From assembly GCA_963849885.1 (NCBI GenBank), contig CAWKIV010000021.1, forward strand, positions 17,064 to 81,063: a stretch of 64,000 nt of DNA, written 5' to 3'. A program made the position numbers and the translations under genes. This document shows positions 16,539 to 55,231 of the stretch, piece by piece. Positions within the stretch are counted from its first letter, which is position 1, and each line of letters begins with the position of its first letter. The notes below the pieces were generated by a model that was not told the DNA's origin, searched no databases, and saw only the letters and a program-made list of their open reading frames with translations. The stretch is from an uncultured Actinomycetota bacterium. GTDB taxonomy: Bacteria > Actinomycetota > Actinomycetes > Mycobacteriales > CADCTP01.

Positions 16539-19049
16539 GTGGACCTCCTCCAGCTGCTGCCTGCCGAGCCGGAGCCGGACGCCCTGTTCGAGGCGTTCGA
16601 GCTGTGGGCGAAGGACCGCGGGCTGGTGCTCTACCCGGCCCAGGAGGAGGCGCTGATCGAGGTCGTGTCGGGCGCCAACGTCATCCTGTCCACCCCGACC
16701 GGCTCCGGGAAGTCGCTGGTCGCGGCCGGCGCCCACTTCACCGCCCTGGCCCAGGGCCGGCAGACCTTCTACACCGCGCCGATCAAGGCGCTGGTGTCGG
16801 AGAAGTTCTTCGACCTGTGCGAGACCTTCGGCACCGCCAACGTCGGCATGATGACCGGCGACGCCGCGGTCAACGGGCAGGCGCCGATCGTCTGCTGCAC
16901 CGCCGAGGTGCTGGCCAACATCGCGCTGCGGGACGGGCCGGCGTCGGACATCGGCCAGGTGGTGATGGACGAGTTCCACTTCTACGCCGACCCGGACCGC
17001 GGCTGGGCCTGGCAGGTGCCGCTGCTGGAGCTGCCGCGGGCCCAGTTCCTGCTCATGTCGGCGACGCTCGGCGACGTCAGCCGGTTCGAGACCGACCTGA
17101 CCCGGCGCACCGGCCGGCCGACCGCGGTGGTGCGCTCCGCGGTGCGCCCGGTGCCGCTGTTCTACGCGTACCGGACCACGCCGATGCACGAGACCCTGCA
17201 GGATCTGCTGGACACCCGGCAGGCCCCGGTCTACGTCGTGCACTTCACCCAGGCCGCCGCGGTGGAGCGGGCGCAGGCGCTGATGAGCATCAACGTGTCC
17301 ACCCGGGCCGAGAAGGACCAGATCGCCGACCTCATCGGCGCCTTCCGGTTCACCACCGGCTTCGGCCGGACGCTGTCCCGGCTGGTCCGGCACGGCATCG
17401 GGGTGCACCACGCCGGGATGCTGCCGAAGTACCGCCGGCTGGTCGAGCGGCTGGCCCAGGCCGGCCTGCTCAAGGTCGTCTGCGGCACCGACACCCTGGG
17501 CGTCGGCGTCAACGTGCCGATCCGGACCGTGCTGTTCACCGGACTGTCCAAGTACGACGGCCAGCGGACCCGGCTGCTCACCGCGCGCGAGTTCCACCAG
17601 ATCGCCGGCCGGGCCGGCCGCGCCGGCTTCGACACCGCCGGCTCGGTGGTCGCGCAGGCCCCCGAGCACGTCATCGAGAACGAGAAGGCGCTGGCCAAGG
17701 CCGGCGACGACCCGAAGAAGCGGCGCAAGGTGGTGCGCAAGAAGCCGCCGGAGGGCGCGATCGGCTGGGGCGAGCCGACCTTCACCCGACTGGTCGAGGC
17801 CGAGCCGGAGCCGCTCACCTCCCAGTTCCGGGTGTCGCACGCGATGCTGCTCAACGTGATCGCCCGGCCCGGGGACGCGTTCACGGCGATGCGGCACCTG
17901 CTCGAGGACAACCACTCGGACCGGCCGACCCAGCGCCGGCTGATCCGCGAGGCCATCGCGATCTACCGCTCGCTGCTGGCCGCCGGCGTGGTCGAGCGAC
18001 TGTCCACACCGGACGCCGAGGGTCGCTCGGTCCGGCTCACCGTCGACCTGCAGGAGAATTTCGCGCTCAACCAGCCGCTGTCCACCTTCGCGCTGGCCGT
18101 GATCGAGCTGCTGGACCGGCAGTCGGAGTCGTACGCGCTGGACGTCGTGTCGGTGATCGAGTCCACTCTGGACCAGCCGCGGCAGGTGCTGTCCGCGCAG
18201 GAGCACAAGGCGCGCGGCGAGGCGATCGCGGCCATGAAGGCCGAGGGGATCGAGTACGACGAGCGGATGGAGCGGCTGCAGGAGGTCACCTACCCCAAGC
18301 CGCTGGTCGAGCTGCTCGACGGCGCGTACGAGACGTACCGGCGGGGTCACCCGTGGGTGGCCGACCACGAGCTGGCCCCGAAGTCGGTGGTGCGGGACCT
18401 GTGGGAGCAGGCGATGACCTTCGCCGACTTCGTCCAGCACTACCAGCTGGCCCGGTCCGAGGGGATCGTGCTGCGCTACCTGGCCGGCGCGTACAAGGCG
18501 CTGCAGCAGACCGTCCCGGCCGAGGCGAAGACCGACGAGCTGCTGGACGTCATCGCCTGGCTGGGCGAGCTGGTCCGGCAGGTCGACTCCAGCCTGCTGG
18601 ACGAGTGGGAGCAGCTGGCCAACCCGGAGACCGCGGTGGCCGCGGACAGCGAGATCGAGGCGGCGCCGCCGGCGGTCACCACCAACCGGCGGGCGTTCCG
18701 GGTGCTGGTCCGCAACGCGCTGTTCCGCCGGGTCGAGCTGGCCGCGCTGCGCCGGTACGGCGACCTGGGCGAGCTGGACGGCGAGGACGGCTGGGACGCC
18801 CGGGCCTGGGCGGACGCGCTGGAGCCGTACTTCGCCGAGCACGGCACGCTGCTCACCGGCGCCGACGCGCGCGGGCCGGCGCTGCTGCTGGTGGACGAGC
18901 GGCCGGACCGCTGGCTGGTCCGGCAGGTCTTCGACGACCCGGCCGGTGACCACGACTGGGGGATCGGCGCCGAGGTCGACCTGGCCGGCTCGGACGCGGC
19001 CGGCCGGGCCGCGGTGCACGTGGTCGCGGTCGACCGGCTGGGCGGCTGA
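16539..19049 (+). CDS. DEAD/DEAH-box (Ski2-like) helicase with a DUF3516 C-terminal region
   Basis: Motif I STPTGSGKS, motif II MDEFH, SAT-like MSATLG, motif VI HQIAGRAGRAG, and a long C-terminal conserved region. The start is uncertain (GTG 16539 preferred; in-frame ATG at 16434 possible). Confidence 0.9.
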   Translation: MDLLQLLPAEPEPDALFEAFELWAKDRGLVLYPAQEEALIEVVSGANVILSTPTGSGKSLVAAGAHFTALAQGRQTFYTAPIKALVSEKFFDLCETFGTANVGMMTGDAAVNGQAPIVCCTAEVLANIALRDGPASDIGQVVMDEFHFYADPDRGWAWQVPLLELPRAQFLLMSATLGDVSRFETDLTRRTGRPTAVVRSAVRPVPLFYAYRTTPMHETLQDLLDTRQAPVYVVHFTQAAAVERAQALMSINVSTRAEKDQIADLIGAFRFTTGFGRTLSRLVRHGIGVHHAGMLPKYRRLVERLAQAGLLKVVCGTDTLGVGVNVPIRTVLFTGLSKYDGQRTRLLTAREFHQIAGRAGRAGFDTAGSVVAQAPEHVIENEKALAKAGDDPKKRRKVVRKKPPEGAIGWGEPTFTRLVEAEPEPLTSQFRVSHAMLLNVIARPGDAFTAMRHLLEDNHSDRPTQRRLIREAIAIYRSLLAAGVVERLSTPDAEGRSVRLTVDLQENFALNQPLSTFALAVIELLDRQSESYALDVVSVIESTLDQPRQVLSAQEHKARGEAIAAMKAEGIEYDERMERLQEVTYPKPLVELLDGAYETYRRGHPWVADHELAPKSVVRDLWEQAMTFADFVQHYQLARSEGIVLRYLAGAYKALQQTVPAEAKTDELLDVIAWLGELVRQVDSSLLDEWEQLANPETAVAADSEIEAAPPAVTTNRRAFRVLVRNALFRRVELAALRRYGDLGELDGEDGWDARAWADALEPYFAEHGTLLTGADARGPALLLVDERPDRWLVRQVFDDPAGDHDWGIGAEVDLAGSDAAGRAAVHVVAVDRLGG

Positions 19050-50433: not shown

Positions 50434-51732
50434 TCACCCGCCCAGGACGAAGTAGCGCAGCCACAGGTACGGCGCCGAGAGCAGGATCGTCACGGCGGCG
50501 ACCACCAGCCCGTACCGGGTGAACCGCCAGAACGAGATCCGGTGCCCGCTGCGCTCGGCGATGCCGAGCACCACCACGTTGGCGCTGGCGCCGACCGCGG
50601 TCGCGTTGCCGCCCAGGTCGGCGCCGAGGGCCAGCGCCCACCAGAGCACGTTCGGGTCCGCGCCGCCGGGCTGCGCGTTCGCGACCAGCTCGGCCACGAC
50701 CGGGCTCATCGTCGCCACGTACGGGATGTTGTCCACGATGGCGGACAGCACCGCGGACACCCCGAGCAGCAGCATGGAGCCGCGGAAGAGGTCGCCGCCG
50801 GTGGCCTCGCCGGCCGCGTTCGCGAGCCTGTCGATCACCCCCGCGCTGATCAGCCCGCCGACGACCACGAACAGGCCCATGAAGAAGACCAGCGTGGGCC
50901 ACTCCACCTCTCGCAGCGCGGTCTCGATCCGCACCCGGGAGACGAAGACCAGCAGTCCGGCGCCGAGCAGGGCGACGATCGACGGCTCCAGGTGCAGCGC
51001 GGTGTGCAGCACGAAGCCGACGATCGTCAGCCCGAGCACGGCGAGGCTCTGCCAGAGCAGAGTGCGGTCCCGGATCGCCTCCCGCTCGTCCAGCTCCATG
51101 ATCTCCGCGACCCGGTCCGGGTGCAGCGTCAGCGCCTTGCGGAAGAGCAGCCGGCAGAGCACCAGCAGCACCCCGACCAGCACCAGCACGAACGGCGCCA
51201 GGTTGACCAGGAAGTCGTTGAAGGACAGGCCGGACCGGCTGGCGATGATGATGTTCGGCGGGTCGCCGATGAGCGTCGCGGTGCCGCCGATGTTCGAGGC
51301 GAACACCTCGGCGATGAGGAACGGGACCGGGTCGAGGTCGAGCCGGTCGCAGAGCAGCACGGTGACCGGCGCGACCAGCAGCACGGTGGTGACGTTGTCC
51401 AGCAGCGCGGAGGCCAGCGCGGTGAGGACGACCAGGCTGGCCATGATCCGGAACGGCCGGCCCCGGGCCCGCTTCGCCGACCAGATCGCCAGGAACTCGA
51501 AGACGCCGGTCTGCCGGAGGACGCCGACGAGGATCATCATGCCGAGCAGCAGGAAGATGACGTTCCAGTCGATCGCCGTCTCCCGGTCGAAGAACGCCGA
51601 CTCCGCGTCCACCACACCGATGACCACCATCGCCGCCGCCCCGCCGAGCGCGGCCGCGACCCGGTGCACCCGCTCGGTGGCGATGAGTGCGTACGTGACG
51701 ACGAAGACCGCGGTGGCCAGGACGGCCGTCAC
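50434..51732 (-). CDS. ArsB/NhaD-superfamily (SLC13-like) ion transporter permease
   Basis: [17 protein letters not shown]...[16 protein letters not shown]...[19 protein letters not shown]...[12 protein letters not shown]. Its GTG overlaps the stop of the CBS gene (GTGA). Confidence 0.85.
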
Positions 51733-52181
51733 GGCAGCATCCGCTCGAGCAGCCGGCCGATCGTGATGACGCCCACGAACCGGCCCTCGTCCACCACGGC
51801 GACCAGGGGGCTGCGCAGTCGCGCCATCACCGCCGCGATCTCCACCGCGGTGGCCTTGCCGGCGACCACCGGCGGCTCGGTCCGCTCCGCCCGCAGCAGG
51901 GTGCGGACCGGCGTGCCGGCGAGCTTGCCGGTGAGCAGGTCGGCGTGCCGCTCGTCGTACACCCGCGCGAGCATCGGGTCGTCCTGCACGTAGCCGGGGA
52001 TGGCGAAGCGCAGCACCTGGGAGCCGGGCAGGACGGAGTGCGGCATCCCGGCCGCGTCGACCACGACCAGGCCGGGCAGCCGGCGCTCGGCCAGCAGCCG
52101 GGCCGCCGCGGCGGCGTCGTGGTCGAGACCGACGGTCGGGAAGTCCGGGTCGGCGAGGTCTCGGGCGAGCAGCGGAACCAC
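51729..52181 (-). CDS. CBS domain-containing protein
   Basis: Two CBS repeats ([23 protein letters not shown]; [31 protein letters not shown]). Confidence 0.82.
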
Positions 52182-52231
52182 CTCCGGTCGCGCGGATACT
52201 GGGACCCGCCGACCAGGCTTCCCGGCTCACC
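52182..52231 (-). promoter_or_regulatory. conserved leader element, copy A (upstream of the CBS-ArsB/NhaD operon)
   Basis: Sense strand: GGTGAGCCGGGAAGCCTGGTCGGCGGGTCCCAGTATCCGCGCGACCGGAG, followed directly by the GTG start. Near-identical to copy B. Confidence 0.6.
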
Positions 52232-52330
52232 TGCTCCGGACCCTATCCTGGCCGGGCGCCGCCCTCGGCGACGCTGAGTGTGCCGGTCGCGGGGCCCGAC
52301 CACGTCCGCGACCTGCCGCTGGGCGGCGTG

Positions 52331-52470
52331 CCGGCCGAGGCGCCGGCTGGGGCGCCGGCTGGGCGCGTCGGCTGGGGGCGGCGGCTGGGGCGCCGGCTGG
52401 GCGTCGGCTGGGGGCGCCGGCTGGGGGCGCCGGCTGAGGGCGCCGGTTACGGCGCCGGTTAGGCGCCGGC
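52331..52470. repeat. intergenic tandem repeat, about 11 units of 11-14 nt, consensus GCGCCGGCTGGG(G)
   Basis: ggcgccggctgggg cgccggctggg cgcgtcggctgggg gcggcggctgggg cgccggctggg cgtcggctgggg gcgccggctgggg gcgccggctgagg gcgccggttacg gcgccggttagg. It lies between the nhaA stop and leader copy A. Confidence 0.85.
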
Positions 52471-52475
52471 TCGTG

Positions 52476-54089
52476 TCAGGGCCGCGGCGGCAGCTCCGGG
52501 ACCGTGCCGGGTGGGGCGCAGACGCCGCCGCGGTCGCCGAACAAGCGGAAGACCGCCCCACCCAGCAGGGCGGCGAGCAGCGAGCCGGCGAGCACGCCGA
52601 TCACCGCCTGCTCCCGCAGCGCCGGGTCGGCGAAAGCCAGGTCGGTGATGAAGAGGGCCACGGTGAAGCCGATGCCGGCCAGCGTGGCCCCGCCGATCAG
52701 CTGGCCGCGGCGGATCTCCCCGGGCAGCATGCCGATCCGCAACCGCAGCGCGAGCAGCGTGCTGCCGCTGATGCCGACGCTCTTGCCGACCACCAGCGCC
52801 ACCACGATGCCGAGGGTCACCGGCGACGTGGCCGACAGCCGCAGCGTCTCGGCGTCCAGCCGGACGCCCGCGTTCGCCAGCGCGAAGAGCGGCACGATGA
52901 GGTAGGACGTCCACGGGTGCAGCGCGTACTGGATCCGCTCGTTGGGGGAGATGGTCGCGGTCGCCGCCAGCCGGGTCAGCCGCGCCTGCTCCGGGGTGGC
53001 CGGGTCCTCGGCGAGGGCGCGGGCGTACGGGTCGATCTCGGTCGGCGGCGCCGGCGCCCGGGTGGGGATCAGCAGCCCGACCAGCACACCGGCGATGGTG
53101 GCGTGCACGCCGGACGCGTGGACGGCCAGCCACAGCGCCAGCCCGACGGCCAGGTACGCCGGGCTGCGCCAGATGCGGAGGAAGCGCAGCGCGACCAGGG
53201 CGCCGACGAGCACCGCCGCCGCCAGCAGCGGTCCGAGGGCCAGGTCGTCGGAGTAGAAGATCGCGATCACCAGGATGGCGCCGATGTCGTCGACGATCGC
53301 GACGGTGAGCAGGAAGAGCCGCAGCGGGTCGGGACAGCGCGGGCCGAGCAGGGCCAGCGCGCCGAGCACGAAGGCGATGTCGGTGGCCATCGCGATGCCC
53401 CAGCCCCGGGCGCCGGCGCCACCCGCGTTGACCGCGGTGAAGATCAGCGCCGGCAGGACCATGCCGCCGAGCGCGGCCAGCACCGGCACCCCGATCGTCC
53501 GGCGGTCCCGCAGCTCCCCGACGGCGACCTCGCGGGTCACCTCCAGCCCGACGACCAGGAAGAAGAGCGCCATCAGGCCGTCGTTGACCCAGTGCTGCAG
53601 GTCCATCGTGAGGTCGGCGGCGCCGATTCGGACGCCGGCCTCGGTCGCCCACAGCCGCTGGTAGCTGTCGCCGAACGGGGAGTTGGCCCAGAGCAGGGCG
53701 ACCACGGTGGCGGCGACGAGCAGCACCCCGGAGCCGACCTCGGTGGCCAGGAAGCGGCGCAGCGGGACGGTGATGGCCGGGCGCGGCAGGCGGCTCGGCG
53801 GACCGGGCCGCGGCGGATCGGCCTGTGCGGGGTCGGGCTGTGCGGGGTCGGGCTGTGCGGGGTCGGCCTGTGCGGGGCCGGGCTGTGCGGGGCCGGGCGG
53901 TGCGGGGCCGGGCGGTGTGGGGCCGGGCGGTGTGGGGCCGGGCTGTGCGGGGTCGGGCTGTGTGCGGCCGGGCGGTGGGGGGCCGGGCTGTGTGGGGTCG
54001 GCCGGTGTGCGGCCGGGCGGTGCGGGGCCGGGCTGTGGGGGGCCGGGCTGTGGAGAGCCGGGCTGCGGCTGGGCAGGGGCGCCGGTCAT
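52476..54089 (-). CDS. nhaA: Na+/H+ antiporter NhaA with a ~110-aa Pro-rich repetitive N-terminal extension
   Basis: Core: LWANSPFGDSY...HWVNDGLMALFFLVVGLEV...GWGIAMATDIAFVLG...LTVAIVDDIGAILVIA. There is no start codon between the repeat and TM1. The ATG at 54089 has a GGAG 5 nt upstream. Confidence 0.9.
   Translation of the reverse strand: MTGAPAQPQPGSPQPGPPQPGPAPPGRTPADPTQPGPPPPGRTQPDPAQPGPTPPGPTPPGPAPPGPAQPGPAQADPAQPDPAQPDPAQADPPRPGPPSRLPRPAITVPLRRFLATEVGSGVLLVAATVVALLWANSPFGDSYQRLWATEAGVRIGAADLTMDLQHWVNDGLMALFFLVVGLEVTREVAVGELRDRRTIGVPVLAALGGMVLPALIFTAVNAGGAGARGWGIAMATDIAFVLGALALLGPRCPDPLRLFLLTVAIVDDIGAILVIAIFYSDDLALGPLLAAAVLVGALVALRFLRIWRSPAYLAVGLALWLAVHASGVHATIAGVLVGLLIPTRAPAPPTEIDPYARALAEDPATPEQARLTRLAATATISPNERIQYALHPWTSYLIVPLFALANAGVRLDAETLRLSATSPVTLGIVVALVVGKSVGISGSTLLALRLRIGMLPGEIRRGQLIGGATLAGIGFTVALFITDLAFADPALREQAVIGVLAGSLLAALLGGAVFRLFGDRGGVCAPPGTVPELPPRP
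53818..54072. repeat. 17 tandem copies of a 15-nt unit (consensus YCGGGCTGTGCGGGG on the plus strand) inside the nhaA 5' coding region
   Basis: Units were read off directly: tcggcctgtgcgggg / tcgggctgtgcgggg / ... / ccgggctgcggctgg. They encode P-(A/T/P)-Q-P-(D/G) pentapeptides on the minus strand. Confidence 0.9.
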
Positions 54090-54094
54090 GGCAG

Positions 54095-54143
54095 CTCCGG
54101 GGGTCGCGGGAGGGGGACCGCCGACCAGGCTTCCCGGCACACC
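54095..54143 (-). promoter_or_regulatory. conserved leader element, copy B (upstream of nhaA)
   Basis: Sense strand: GGTGTGCCGGGAAGCCTGGTCGGCGGTCCCCCTCCCGCGACCCCCGGAG, then ctgcc and the ATG. It starts about 20 nt after the stop of the upstream gene. Confidence 0.6.
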
Positions 54144-54164
54144 GCCAGCCAGCGTACCGGGCCG

Positions 54165-55231
54165 TCAGCTGCAGCGGGCGAGCTCGGCCGGCCAGCCCTG
54201 CCAGGCGTACGCGGCGCCGGTCCAGCGCAGCCGGAGGGTGGTGAGCCGGCGCTCGTCGGCCCACGCCCGGCGGTCCACTGTCGCGGTCACCTCGCGCCAG
54301 CCCCGCTGGGCGGTCAGCGTCACCTGGTACGCCCGCGGGTAGCGGCAGTAGCGCCCGAGGACCAGCCGGACGGCGTCCCGGGCGGCCTCCTCGGCCGGCG
54401 CCGGACCGGTGGCCGGCAGGGTGCCGCGGACCGCCTCGGCCGGCCGGCCGATCGGGGACGGCATCGGGATCGGGGTCCGACCGGGCAGCCGGTCGAAGGG
54501 CGGCGGCTGCATCCGGGCGCGGCCGTAGATGATCACCGGGCCGGACGTCGACCCGGCCGCGGCCTGCGCCTGCTCGACCGGGACCGCGGGAGCGCCGGCG
54601 CGCAGGGCGACGACGGCCCCGGCCGCGGCGACGGCCGCGGTGGCCGCGACGGCCCGCCGGCGCCACGGCCCGCTGGCGCCGCCGGCGCGCCACCACCGCC
54701 GCGCGTCCCGGACCACTCGCTGCAGGCCGCTCTCCGCCGGCGGGCGCTCCGGCCCGGACTCGAGCACGTCACCGGCGGACCAGCCGGGGCTGGCCGCTCC
54801 CAGCAGGTCGACATCGCCCCCGCGCCCGGCGGGCTCGCCGCGCCCGGCGCCCTCGGTCCCGTCGCGCCCGGTTCCGCCGTGCGGTCCCGTCGCGCTCGCT
54901 CCCGTCGCTCCCGGTCGCGCTCGCGCCCGTCGCGCTCGCTCGCATCGCTCCCGGCGCCTGCGGTCCCGTCGCGCTCGCTCCCGTCGCGTCCGGCGCGCTC
55001 GTACCCGTGGCGCCCGCTCCCACTGCGCCCGGCGGGTTCGCTCTCGGCGTGCTCGGCGTGCTCGGGAGCAATGCGCGGCCCTCGGTACCACGTCCCGTCG
55101 GCCGGCTCGGCTGCCTTCGCCTCCGGCGCAGGCCCGTACCGGAACCCGTCCCGATAGGGCCGCCGATCAGCCTCCCCGGTCCCGTACCCGGACGCGCCGT
55201 CGCGCGCAGGATCCGGGCCGAGGGGGTCCAC
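54165..55231 (-). CDS. hypothetical membrane-anchored protein with an acidic SERDG-type repeat region. The N- and C-terminal parts lie in different frames.
   Basis: C-terminal frame (54165..): WWRAGGASGPWRRRAVAATAAVAAAGAVVAL (TM)...VRLVLGRYCRYPRAYQVTLTAQRGWREVTATVDRRAW. N-terminal frame (..55231): MDPLGPDPARDGASGYGTGEADRRPYRDGFRYGP...SERDGTAGAGSDASERDGRERD. Confidence 0.5.

Follow-up and report, generated by a model that had tools for sequence, protein, structure and literature searches.

Here we analysed the leaders of two transporter units that lie 1.9 kb apart on the minus strand of a 64-kb window (the whole stretch of DNA examined, positions 17,064 to 81,063 of contig CAWKIV010000021.1 from an uncultured Actinomycetota bacterium). 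The first unit is nhaA and the second is an operon made of a gene for a CBS-domain protein and one for a CitMHS/ArsB/NhaD-like permease, in agreement with the original prediction, which had read both as monovalent-cation/proton transporter units and had drawn attention to a near-identical leader in front of each of them. Comparison of the two minus-strand leaders (54143-54095 before nhaA, called copy B, and 52231-52182 before the CBS operon, called copy A) bore this out, as the first 26 nucleotides (nt) are identical at 25 of 26 positions, the 26-nt core reads GGTG[A/T]GCCGGGAAGCCTGGTCGGCGG, and both tails have CGACC..GGAG in common. The 21-mer GCCGGGAAGCCTGGTCGGCGG has exactly two matches in the window, even when three mismatches are permitted, against 0.04 in dinucleotide shuffles, and a covariance model of the element gave 46.2 bits for copy B and 43.3 bits for copy A. 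The next-best match of the model (17.4 bits) falls inside coding sequence and is hence noise, so that the window contains no third copy, as had been stated before. We propose that the element represents a new structural class of cation-associated cis-regulatory leader RNA and consider it a riboswitch candidate. Its features, including a hairpin (H1) and an alternative helix (P2) to which we return below, are distributed along the locus as follows, with RNA positions counted from G1 of the core.

54151-54156, minus strand: -10-like hexamer TACGCT of copy B, 7 nt upstream of G1
54119-54143, minus strand: copy B core, RNA positions 1-25, a GGUG tail and then H1 (model match 54116-54143)
54134-54139 (5' arm), 54125-54133 (loop GAAGCCUGG) and 54119-54124 (3' arm), minus strand: H1 of copy B, with U5·G25 and G6-C24
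54102-54109, minus strand: 3' arm of P2 in copy B, CCG-CGACC, pairing with G18-G22 and C24-G26
54095-54098, minus strand: Shine-Dalgarno sequence GGAG of copy B, 6 nt before the nhaA ATG (54087-54089)
52476-54089, minus strand: nhaA, 537 amino acids (PF06965, E 2.5e-141; TIGR00773, 369.8 bits against a cut-off of 254)
52240-52245, minus strand: -10-like hexamer TAGGGT of copy A, 8 nt upstream of G1
52207-52231, minus strand: copy A core, RNA positions 1-25, a GGUG tail and then H1 (model match 52204-52231)
52222-52227 (5' arm), 52213-52221 (loop) and 52207-52212 (3' arm), minus strand: H1 of copy A, with A5/G25 and G6-C24
52186-52190, minus strand: 3' arm of P2 in copy A, CGACC, running straight into the Shine-Dalgarno sequence GGAGG (52181-52185)
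51729-52181, minus strand: CBS-domain gene (Pfam, NCBIfam), start ambiguous
50434-51732, minus strand: CitMHS/ArsB/NhaD-like permease gene (Pfam, NCBIfam), overlapping the CBS gene

A pattern scan (TGNGCCGGGAAGNNTGGTCGG) over one genome per species recovered at least 120 loci, nearly all of them in Actinomycetota (Actinomycetes, Acidimicrobiia and Thermoleophilia). Among the matches listed are Streptomyces, Nocardia, Mycobacterium, Amycolatopsis, Arthrobacter, Microbacteriaceae, Frankia, Acidimicrobiia and Solirubrobacterales, as well as one 3-kb contig binned as Burkholderiales, and in 124 of 124 the element stands in sense orientation ahead of an open reading frame (ORF). Positions that the pattern had left free were near invariant (G1 and G2 in 131/132, C16 in 131/132 and C24 in 129/132), position 5 was never G, and position 15 was free to be A or G. 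The mismatch spectrum over 1.09 Mb was bimodal, with 131 exact copies, seven copies that carry a single mismatch (position 3 or 24) and, at five or more mismatches, noise. Recurrence at this many loci across the phylum means that the element did not arise by local duplication. The notion of a local pair, correct in that the window holds two copies, thus falls short of an element that is phylum-wide, and a recent duplication of an untranslated region (UTR) or a chance similarity devoid of function, which two copies 1.9 kb apart in one window might have suggested, has a negligible probability in view of more than 180 independent loci across the phylum, in front of different genes, and a chance expectation of 0.04.

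The position of the element relative to the transcript is equally constrained. A generic sigma-70 promoter and intrinsic-terminator consensus scan found nothing, and the actinobacterial TANNNT box was measured directly: it lies at -16..-6 in 148 of 203 instances compared with 25 of 203 in a control window, its final T being at -8 in 100 of these instances. This spacing, with the motif 7-8 nt past the box, indicates that transcription starts within about 1 nt of G1, so that the element is 5'-terminal, in leaders whose median 5' UTR is 61 nt and whose start codon follows some 35 nt past the element. In the window, the TACGCT hexamer of copy B lies 9 nt past the stop codon of the upstream ORF, and at the -10 box of copy A the related contig L001 has the same GGATAGGGT. 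Further upstream, conserved sequences specific to single lineages were seen, namely CGCGTCA around -35..-25 in Streptomyces (L034, L038, L044, L050, L109, L113), TTTACGGCATCTTTAC upstream of the -10 box in Nocardia/Amycolatopsis (L017, L029, L064, L073, L076) and CTGAAAnTTTAGTA upstream of the -10 box in the mycobacterial type (L131-L192); these may represent special promoters, or binding sites for transcription factors, by which a layer of transcriptional control is added.

The NhaA homologues belong to uncultured high-GC actinomycetes, the sole named one being a Mycobacteriales metagenome-assembled genome (MAG). Four related contigs retain an intact core ahead of nhaA, and the sequence that follows it changes yet keeps a complement to GGTCGG. 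L001 carries both copies as the window does, the second one again followed by a CBS and ArsB-like gene pair, and in L007 nhaA and an ArsB-like gene share one operon and one copy of the element. Recurrence before orthologous transporters was found in these four contigs and at the loci of the species scan, but it does not extend to two more distant NhaA orthologues (Catellatospora, 61% identity, and a metagenomic sequence, 60%), which lack the element and show that it is not obligatory for nhaA. A degenerate second copy (ACUGCGCCGGGAAGCGUGG..., 16 bits) was observed at L002 6977-7002 before a Na_H_Exchanger/TrkA_C gene, preceded by about 600 nt without a called gene, and may be a decaying member.

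Comparative analysis of the copies identified H1, in which positions 5-10 pair with 20-25 (Y5·R25 wobble, N6-N24, C7-G23, C8-G22, G9-C21 and G10·U20) around a near-invariant 9-nt loop GAAGNCUGG (G11AAGNCUGG19). Positions 5 and 25 share the highest mutual information of all pairs (0.51 bit): C5 occurs with A25 in 33 of 35 cases, U5 with G25 in 65 of 78, and C-G only once, and both states are found within many genera. The two combinations, U·G and C·A, form wobble pairs that are isosteric. A metagenome scan in which position 6 was forced to be other than G yielded 66 hits, among them C6-G24 in 25, A6-U24 in 14, A6 with C24 in 6 and U6-A24 in 16; misfits were few and resembled chance hits in coding sequence, and the 5·25 pair was again C·A or U·G. 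Over 136 distinct sequences, pair 6·24 was GC in 102, UA in 13, CG in 7, AU in 6, GU in 3 and other in 5, with a covariation score above all 500 shuffles and all slid controls. The variants follow gene lineages, U-A being that of the mycobacterial ABC operons, C-G and A-U those of CPA1 exchangers, and A·C that of DUF2254. Several single contigs hold two or three copies before different transporter genes (L161 at 2084, 2586 and 7578; L178 at 1867 and 4257; L139 at 1842 and 6435), and the differing 6·24 pairs among copies on one contig indicate that paralogous leaders diverge within one genome. Taken together, the covariation at 5·25 and 6·24 establishes H1 as a real RNA structure on the sense strand, that is, a conserved structured domain with covariation of the kind riboswitches in general possess (four Watson-Crick forms at 6·24 and an isosteric wobble at 5·25). 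Single-sequence folding of the window leaders was no better than that of shuffles (z -1.2 and +0.3), and the case accordingly rests on the comparative data rather than on folding energy.

These same pairs bear on the shared operator that the original prediction had also contemplated, a DNA operator or promoter element at +1..+25 bound by a transcription factor. Such a site would overlap the inferred start site, GCCGG..TCGGC forms an imperfect inverted repeat, and lineage-specific upstream promoter motifs do occur. A DNA palindrome, however, would predict the opposite of the T/G or C/A combinations seen at 5/25, and together with the G·U pairs these point to sense-strand RNA; G10/T20 is a mismatch in DNA and a wobble pair in RNA, the orientation is strictly sense, and a protein reading bases would not tolerate all four Watson-Crick forms at 6·24. 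We consequently regard a DNA operator as very improbable, and the idea of a shared cis-regulatory leader acting at the RNA level and tied to monovalent-cation transporters is supported by the phylum-wide recurrence and the covariation.

Other accounts of the core were tried and rejected. A small hairpin CCGGG/NCUGG with an AAG loop is disfavoured by position 15, which may be A or G, and by the 6·24 covariation, which favours H1. A leaderless upstream ORF from the GUG at positions 2-4 fails since stops are equal over the three frames, and the variable positions coincide with the first and second bases of codons, third bases being invariant. Complementarity of the loop to 16S rRNA was dropped because position 15 varies, and the 16S rRNA site proposed as its partner is helical. 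A pseudoknot of the loop or the 5' tail with downstream sequence was looked for, and complements of the loop were not enriched; the complement of positions 1-6 was weakly enriched (11 against 3.7, z=4).

Examination of the sequence following the core revealed a second, competing helix. CCGACC, the exact complement of G18-G23, is found in 43 of 132 leaders within the 60 nt that follow, compared with 14.8 expected from dinucleotide shuffles (z=9), and CGACC in 66 of 132 compared with 32 expected (z=7.3), whereas no other segment of the core has an enriched complement in the leaders apart from the weak signal at positions 1-6. In most cases the tract is located 8-12 nt or about 20 nt past the core and then continues as CC(N)GGAG or straight into GGAGG. 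The base opposite position 24 in P2 covaries weakly (G24-C in 7/8, p about 0.01). H1 and P2 both use nt 18-24 and are therefore mutually exclusive, and P2 is possible in roughly half of the members, both window copies included. The original prediction had noticed the GGTCG/CGACC complementarity in both copies, extended to CTGGTCG/CGACCGG in copy A; the complementarity is indeed present, and its recurrence beside the ribosome-binding site (RBS) in relatives far exceeds chance. The helix it had taken as the hairpin of the element is a real alternative, but the defining structure is H1, of which P2 is the exclusive competitor.

How P2 relates to the Shine-Dalgarno (SD) sequence differs among leaders. 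In copy A and in M. goodii, P2 buries the first two G of the SD (in copy A through CUGGUCG with CGACCGG), and the layout of copy A, with CGACC running into GGAGG, is found in Streptomyces nhaA leaders and M. goodii as well. The predicted fold of Streptomyces nhaA leaders pairs core positions 9-23 across CCGACCGGAGG..UCUCCC (CCGACC-GGAGG-UCUCCC) with the SD buried, and in the minimum-free-energy fold of copy B, C7C8 of the core pairs with the GG of the SD. H1 alone amounts to only -7 kcal/mol, and the equilibrium folds of the two window leaders leave it unpopulated (-39.2 versus -21.1 kcal/mol in copy A and -27.5 versus -17.8 kcal/mol in copy B), which implies that H1 needs to be stabilised or kinetically trapped. 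A CUUCCC 'anti-core' past P2 was not enriched across the family (6 against 4), and a complement test tolerating G·U had too high a background to inform.

Some further observations concern the sequences around the two window copies. NhaA has a Pro/Gln-rich repeat at its N-terminus, and a 15-nt tandem repeat of 16.5 copies (53819-54065, minus strand) in the 5' part of nhaA encodes this Pro/Gln/Gly-rich N-terminal extension; relatives have other repeats or none at this position (L001 4860-4950). The start of the CBS gene is ambiguous because the GTG at 52181 (minus strand) abuts the SD with zero spacer; in L001 the start is a GTG 8 nt past GGAGG, where the window has CTG (52172-52170). From the nhaA stop to the CBS promoter, the intergenic space is filled by a 12-13-nt tandem repeat, GCCGGCTGGGGC, of 11.6 copies (52330-52471), and its counterpart in L001 is a DsbA/thioredoxin gene on the opposite strand that the window does not have. 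Within the CBS coding sequence, CCGGACTTCCCG at 52137-52148 (minus strand, DPDFP motif) is complementary to core positions 8-19; it also occurs in L001 and L066 and could be a further partner of the core or a mere coding constraint. Lastly, a cobalamin riboswitch unrelated to the element (91 bits) was found at L049 3387-3557, in a Solirubrobacterales MAG locus.

The genes that follow the element were counted as the first downstream gene in the scan of species-representative genomes, among the matches listed. NhaA was the most frequent (61), followed by Na_H_Exchanger/CPA1 (18), CBS followed by CitMHS/ArsB (6), CitMHS directly (2), DUF2254 (6) and a DrrA/NatA-like ABC ATPase (3); MnhA (Mrp), TrkH, Na_Ca_ex and SulP-STAS occurred at single loci, a PEP-utilising enzyme, AA_permease_2 and an alpha/beta hydrolase at two each, and a few genes were unknowns. 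The element thus precedes non-homologous genes of one physiological theme (NhaA, CPA1, Mrp, ABC-2 ATPase, NhaD-like, Na/Ca exchanger, TrkH), as is generally expected of a riboswitch.

In the U6-A24 lineage the gene after the element encodes an ABC ATPase, the nearest named relatives of which are the Mycobacterium/Mycolicibacterium proteins called 'fluoroquinolone export ATP-binding protein' (MT2762/Rv2688c naming). An element stands before the Rv2688c-Rv2686c-type ABC operon in M. riyadhense (GGCGCUCCGGGAAGACUGGUCGGAA, 32.7 bits) and, with the same sequence, in M. canettii, and the one before the Rv2688c-type operon of M. goodii is canonical (45.4 bits); gene order at the mycobacterial loci matches Rv2684-Rv2690c synteny. 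The fluoroquinolone annotation of the operon is credited to Pasca et al. 2004. These mycobacterial ABC leaders are about 100 nt long with no obvious CCGACC partner. The coordinates of the elements in the set formed by M. canettii, M. riyadhense, M. goodii and a widely sequenced relative are the following.

L200 2396-2423: element before Rv2688c-type ABC operon
L197 3901-3928: element before Rv2688c-type ABC operon
L199 3946-3973: element before Rv2688c-type ABC operon
L201 1307-1334: element before Rv2688c-type ABC operon

Placing these results into one model, we lean slightly towards the explanation that the element acts as a riboswitch-like switch, located in the 5' leader, which answers to cation stress. 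The RNA would start at about G1 with single-stranded GGUG, followed by H1 and, some 35 nt on, by the start codon. The default state would be a stable P2 or long-range fold, occluding the SD of copy A, of the Streptomyces nhaA leaders and of the M. goodii leader, and a cation-stress signal would stabilise the weak H1 with its two wobble pairs, conserved loop and conserved tail. The likeliest signal would be Na+ or Li+ bound directly, alkaline pH being another possible one. The data show the element, its place at the 5' end, H1, the enrichment of P2 and the association with these genes; ligand, direct sensing and polarity are what we infer. Stabilised H1 would then release the RBS or protect the 5' end, turning ON the Na+(Li+)/H+ antiporters and other cation exporters, and the output could be exerted on translation initiation, through 5'-end-dependent decay or by Rho-dependent termination.

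Several findings weigh against this explanation. For the PEP-utilising enzyme, the alpha/beta hydrolase and the amino-acid permease family, a connection with cations is not obvious. P2 is absent in about half of the members, the mycobacterial ABC leaders being an example. In partition-function folding of 144 leaders, predicted pairing of the SD amounted to 0.60 in native sequences, 0.61 with H1 forced and 0.61 with shuffled cores, so that a general occlusion model in which H1 frees the SD finds no support from folding and was rejected as such; pairing between SD and core was modestly raised over the same leaders (0.355 against 0.293, p=0.004). The 6·24 variants follow few gene lineages and hence represent about 4-6 independent compensatory events rather than dozens, and the pairs of 7-10 with 20-23 were fixed by the search patterns, their invariance being only partly checked by about 12 copies that were found pattern-free, by mismatch or covariance-model search, and keep them. 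The conserved unit of about 25 nt is small for an aptamer selective for a monovalent ion. Some of these points would suit a constitutive 5'-terminal stem-loop that tunes mRNA stability or translation of membrane-transporter genes with no sensing involved, in that folding gives no general coupling to the SD and the hairpin begins 4-5 nt from the inferred 5' end; such a stem-loop, however, would need neither 20 invariant nt nor a selected wobble at 5·25 nor a restriction to cation-transport genes, and would leave the enriched competing helix unexplained, making it improbable in our view.

The small size of the unit and the lack of a consistent expression platform also bring into consideration a hairpin that serves as operator RNA for a trans-acting RNA-binding protein or small RNA, with the sensing of cation or pH stress left to that factor, as in the iron-responsive element (IRE). 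A near-invariant loop and 5' tail above a covarying lower stem are typical of hairpins recognised by proteins, and a strict 5'-end position would fit the control of 5'-end-dependent decay or ribosome loading. No candidate for a binding protein is co-located, however, the neighbours varying from MarR in M. riyadhense and TetR in M. goodii to hypothetical proteins elsewhere, no complementary copy resembling a small RNA turned up on either strand in the species-genome and metagenome scans, and an enriched competing P2 is more typical of a self-contained switch. We judge a trans-acting factor to be the main rival, if a rather unlikely one, and return to the leader as a switch in its own right.

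The boldest form of the switch can be advanced tentatively, as a possibility that we would place below an even chance: a new phylum-wide riboswitch class in which a 25-nt 5'-terminal hairpin with two wobbles directly senses Na+/Li+, or a cation together with pH, and defines an actinobacterial sodium-stress regulon that includes the Rv2688c-Rv2686c pump as primarily a cation exporter. If this were true, Actinomycetota would gain a testable sensor and a ready list of regulated genes, covering Streptomyces, Mycobacterium, Nocardia, Arthrobacter and Acidimicrobiia and including DUF2254 and CBS partner proteins of unknown role. The Rv2688c-Rv2686c pump, annotated as a fluoroquinolone exporter, would then primarily export cations; the element connects cation stress with the Rv2686c-Rv2688c 'fluoroquinolone efflux' operon of the tuberculosis complex and changes how induction of that operon is to be read. 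According to the Na+ riboswitch paper, a single bacterial protein had been shown to sense Na+ selectively and to regulate gene expression (PMC9337991), and the examples of Na+ and Li+ riboswitches considered here belong to other phyla. A selected U·G/C·A wobble and so small a size are in addition unusual for a structured regulatory RNA.

Membership in a known class of Li+ or Na+ riboswitch, which the original prediction had raised, was not borne out. A covariance search of Rfam 15 with permissive filters returned no family at E<=10 in the window region 51900-54500 and nothing at the motif at E<=5 in eight other loci, from which it follows that the element is not nhaA-I, nhaA-II or DUF1646. The nhaA-I family is included in Rfam; for nhaA-II (Li+-II) the lack of a match is a slightly weaker negative, the presence of that family in Rfam 15 being unconfirmed; and the DUF1646 (Na+-I) model had no match in the window region or the eight other loci, the Rfam 15 paper mentioning a Na+ riboswitch family. 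A literature search for the sequence, or for nhaA or riboswitch together with Actinobacteria, retrieved no description, with partial coverage, so that an earlier description may exist.

Among small RNA switches, guanidine-II mini-ykkC and preQ1-I have aptamers of 16-34 nt with one short hairpin and an invariant loop and achieve selective sensing. Their loops, ligands and gene sets are unrelated to those of the element, and mini-ykkC consists of two kissing hairpins whereas the element has one per leader. The IRE, bound by the iron regulatory protein (IRP), is likewise a short hairpin near the 5' end, its loop invariant and its stem covarying, and it is shared by the mRNAs of one homeostasis regulon; it is eukaryotic and protein-dependent, and its likeness to the element in these respects is one of analogy.

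The closest parallels are offered by the riboswitches for alkali ions. Li+-I and Li+-II (White et al. 2022, PMC9646797; Weinberg et al. 2017, PMC5737381) are switches of the genetic ON type that control cation exporters, and they too are 5'-leader RNAs mostly before nhaA and occasionally before nhaD, citrate-transporter-like, cation/H+ antiporter or TrkA genes, nhaA-II having only 38 known representatives, nearly all before nhaA. Like Li+-I, the element is located in the 5' UTRs of nhaA and of related genes for cation transporters, and it differs in architecture and taxonomy: nhaA-I has an aptamer of some 70 nt in which two stems are joined by a P1-P2 linker, in contrast to a single 6-bp hairpin with a 4-nt tail at the 5' end, and the validated examples cited in that work come from proteobacteria (Azorhizobium, Pseudomonas, Ralstonia, Brevundimonas), in contrast to Actinomycetota. 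Na+-I (the DUF1646 motif) is also an ON switch (White et al. 2022, PMC9337991); its architecture is different and its associations with DUF1646 and oadG were not seen for the element, but its regulon is one of non-homologous sodium genes (antiporters, ATP-driven Na+ exporters and others), as is the gene set described here. In the profile of the genes that it precedes, the actinobacterial element resembles the published Na+ and Li+ riboswitches.

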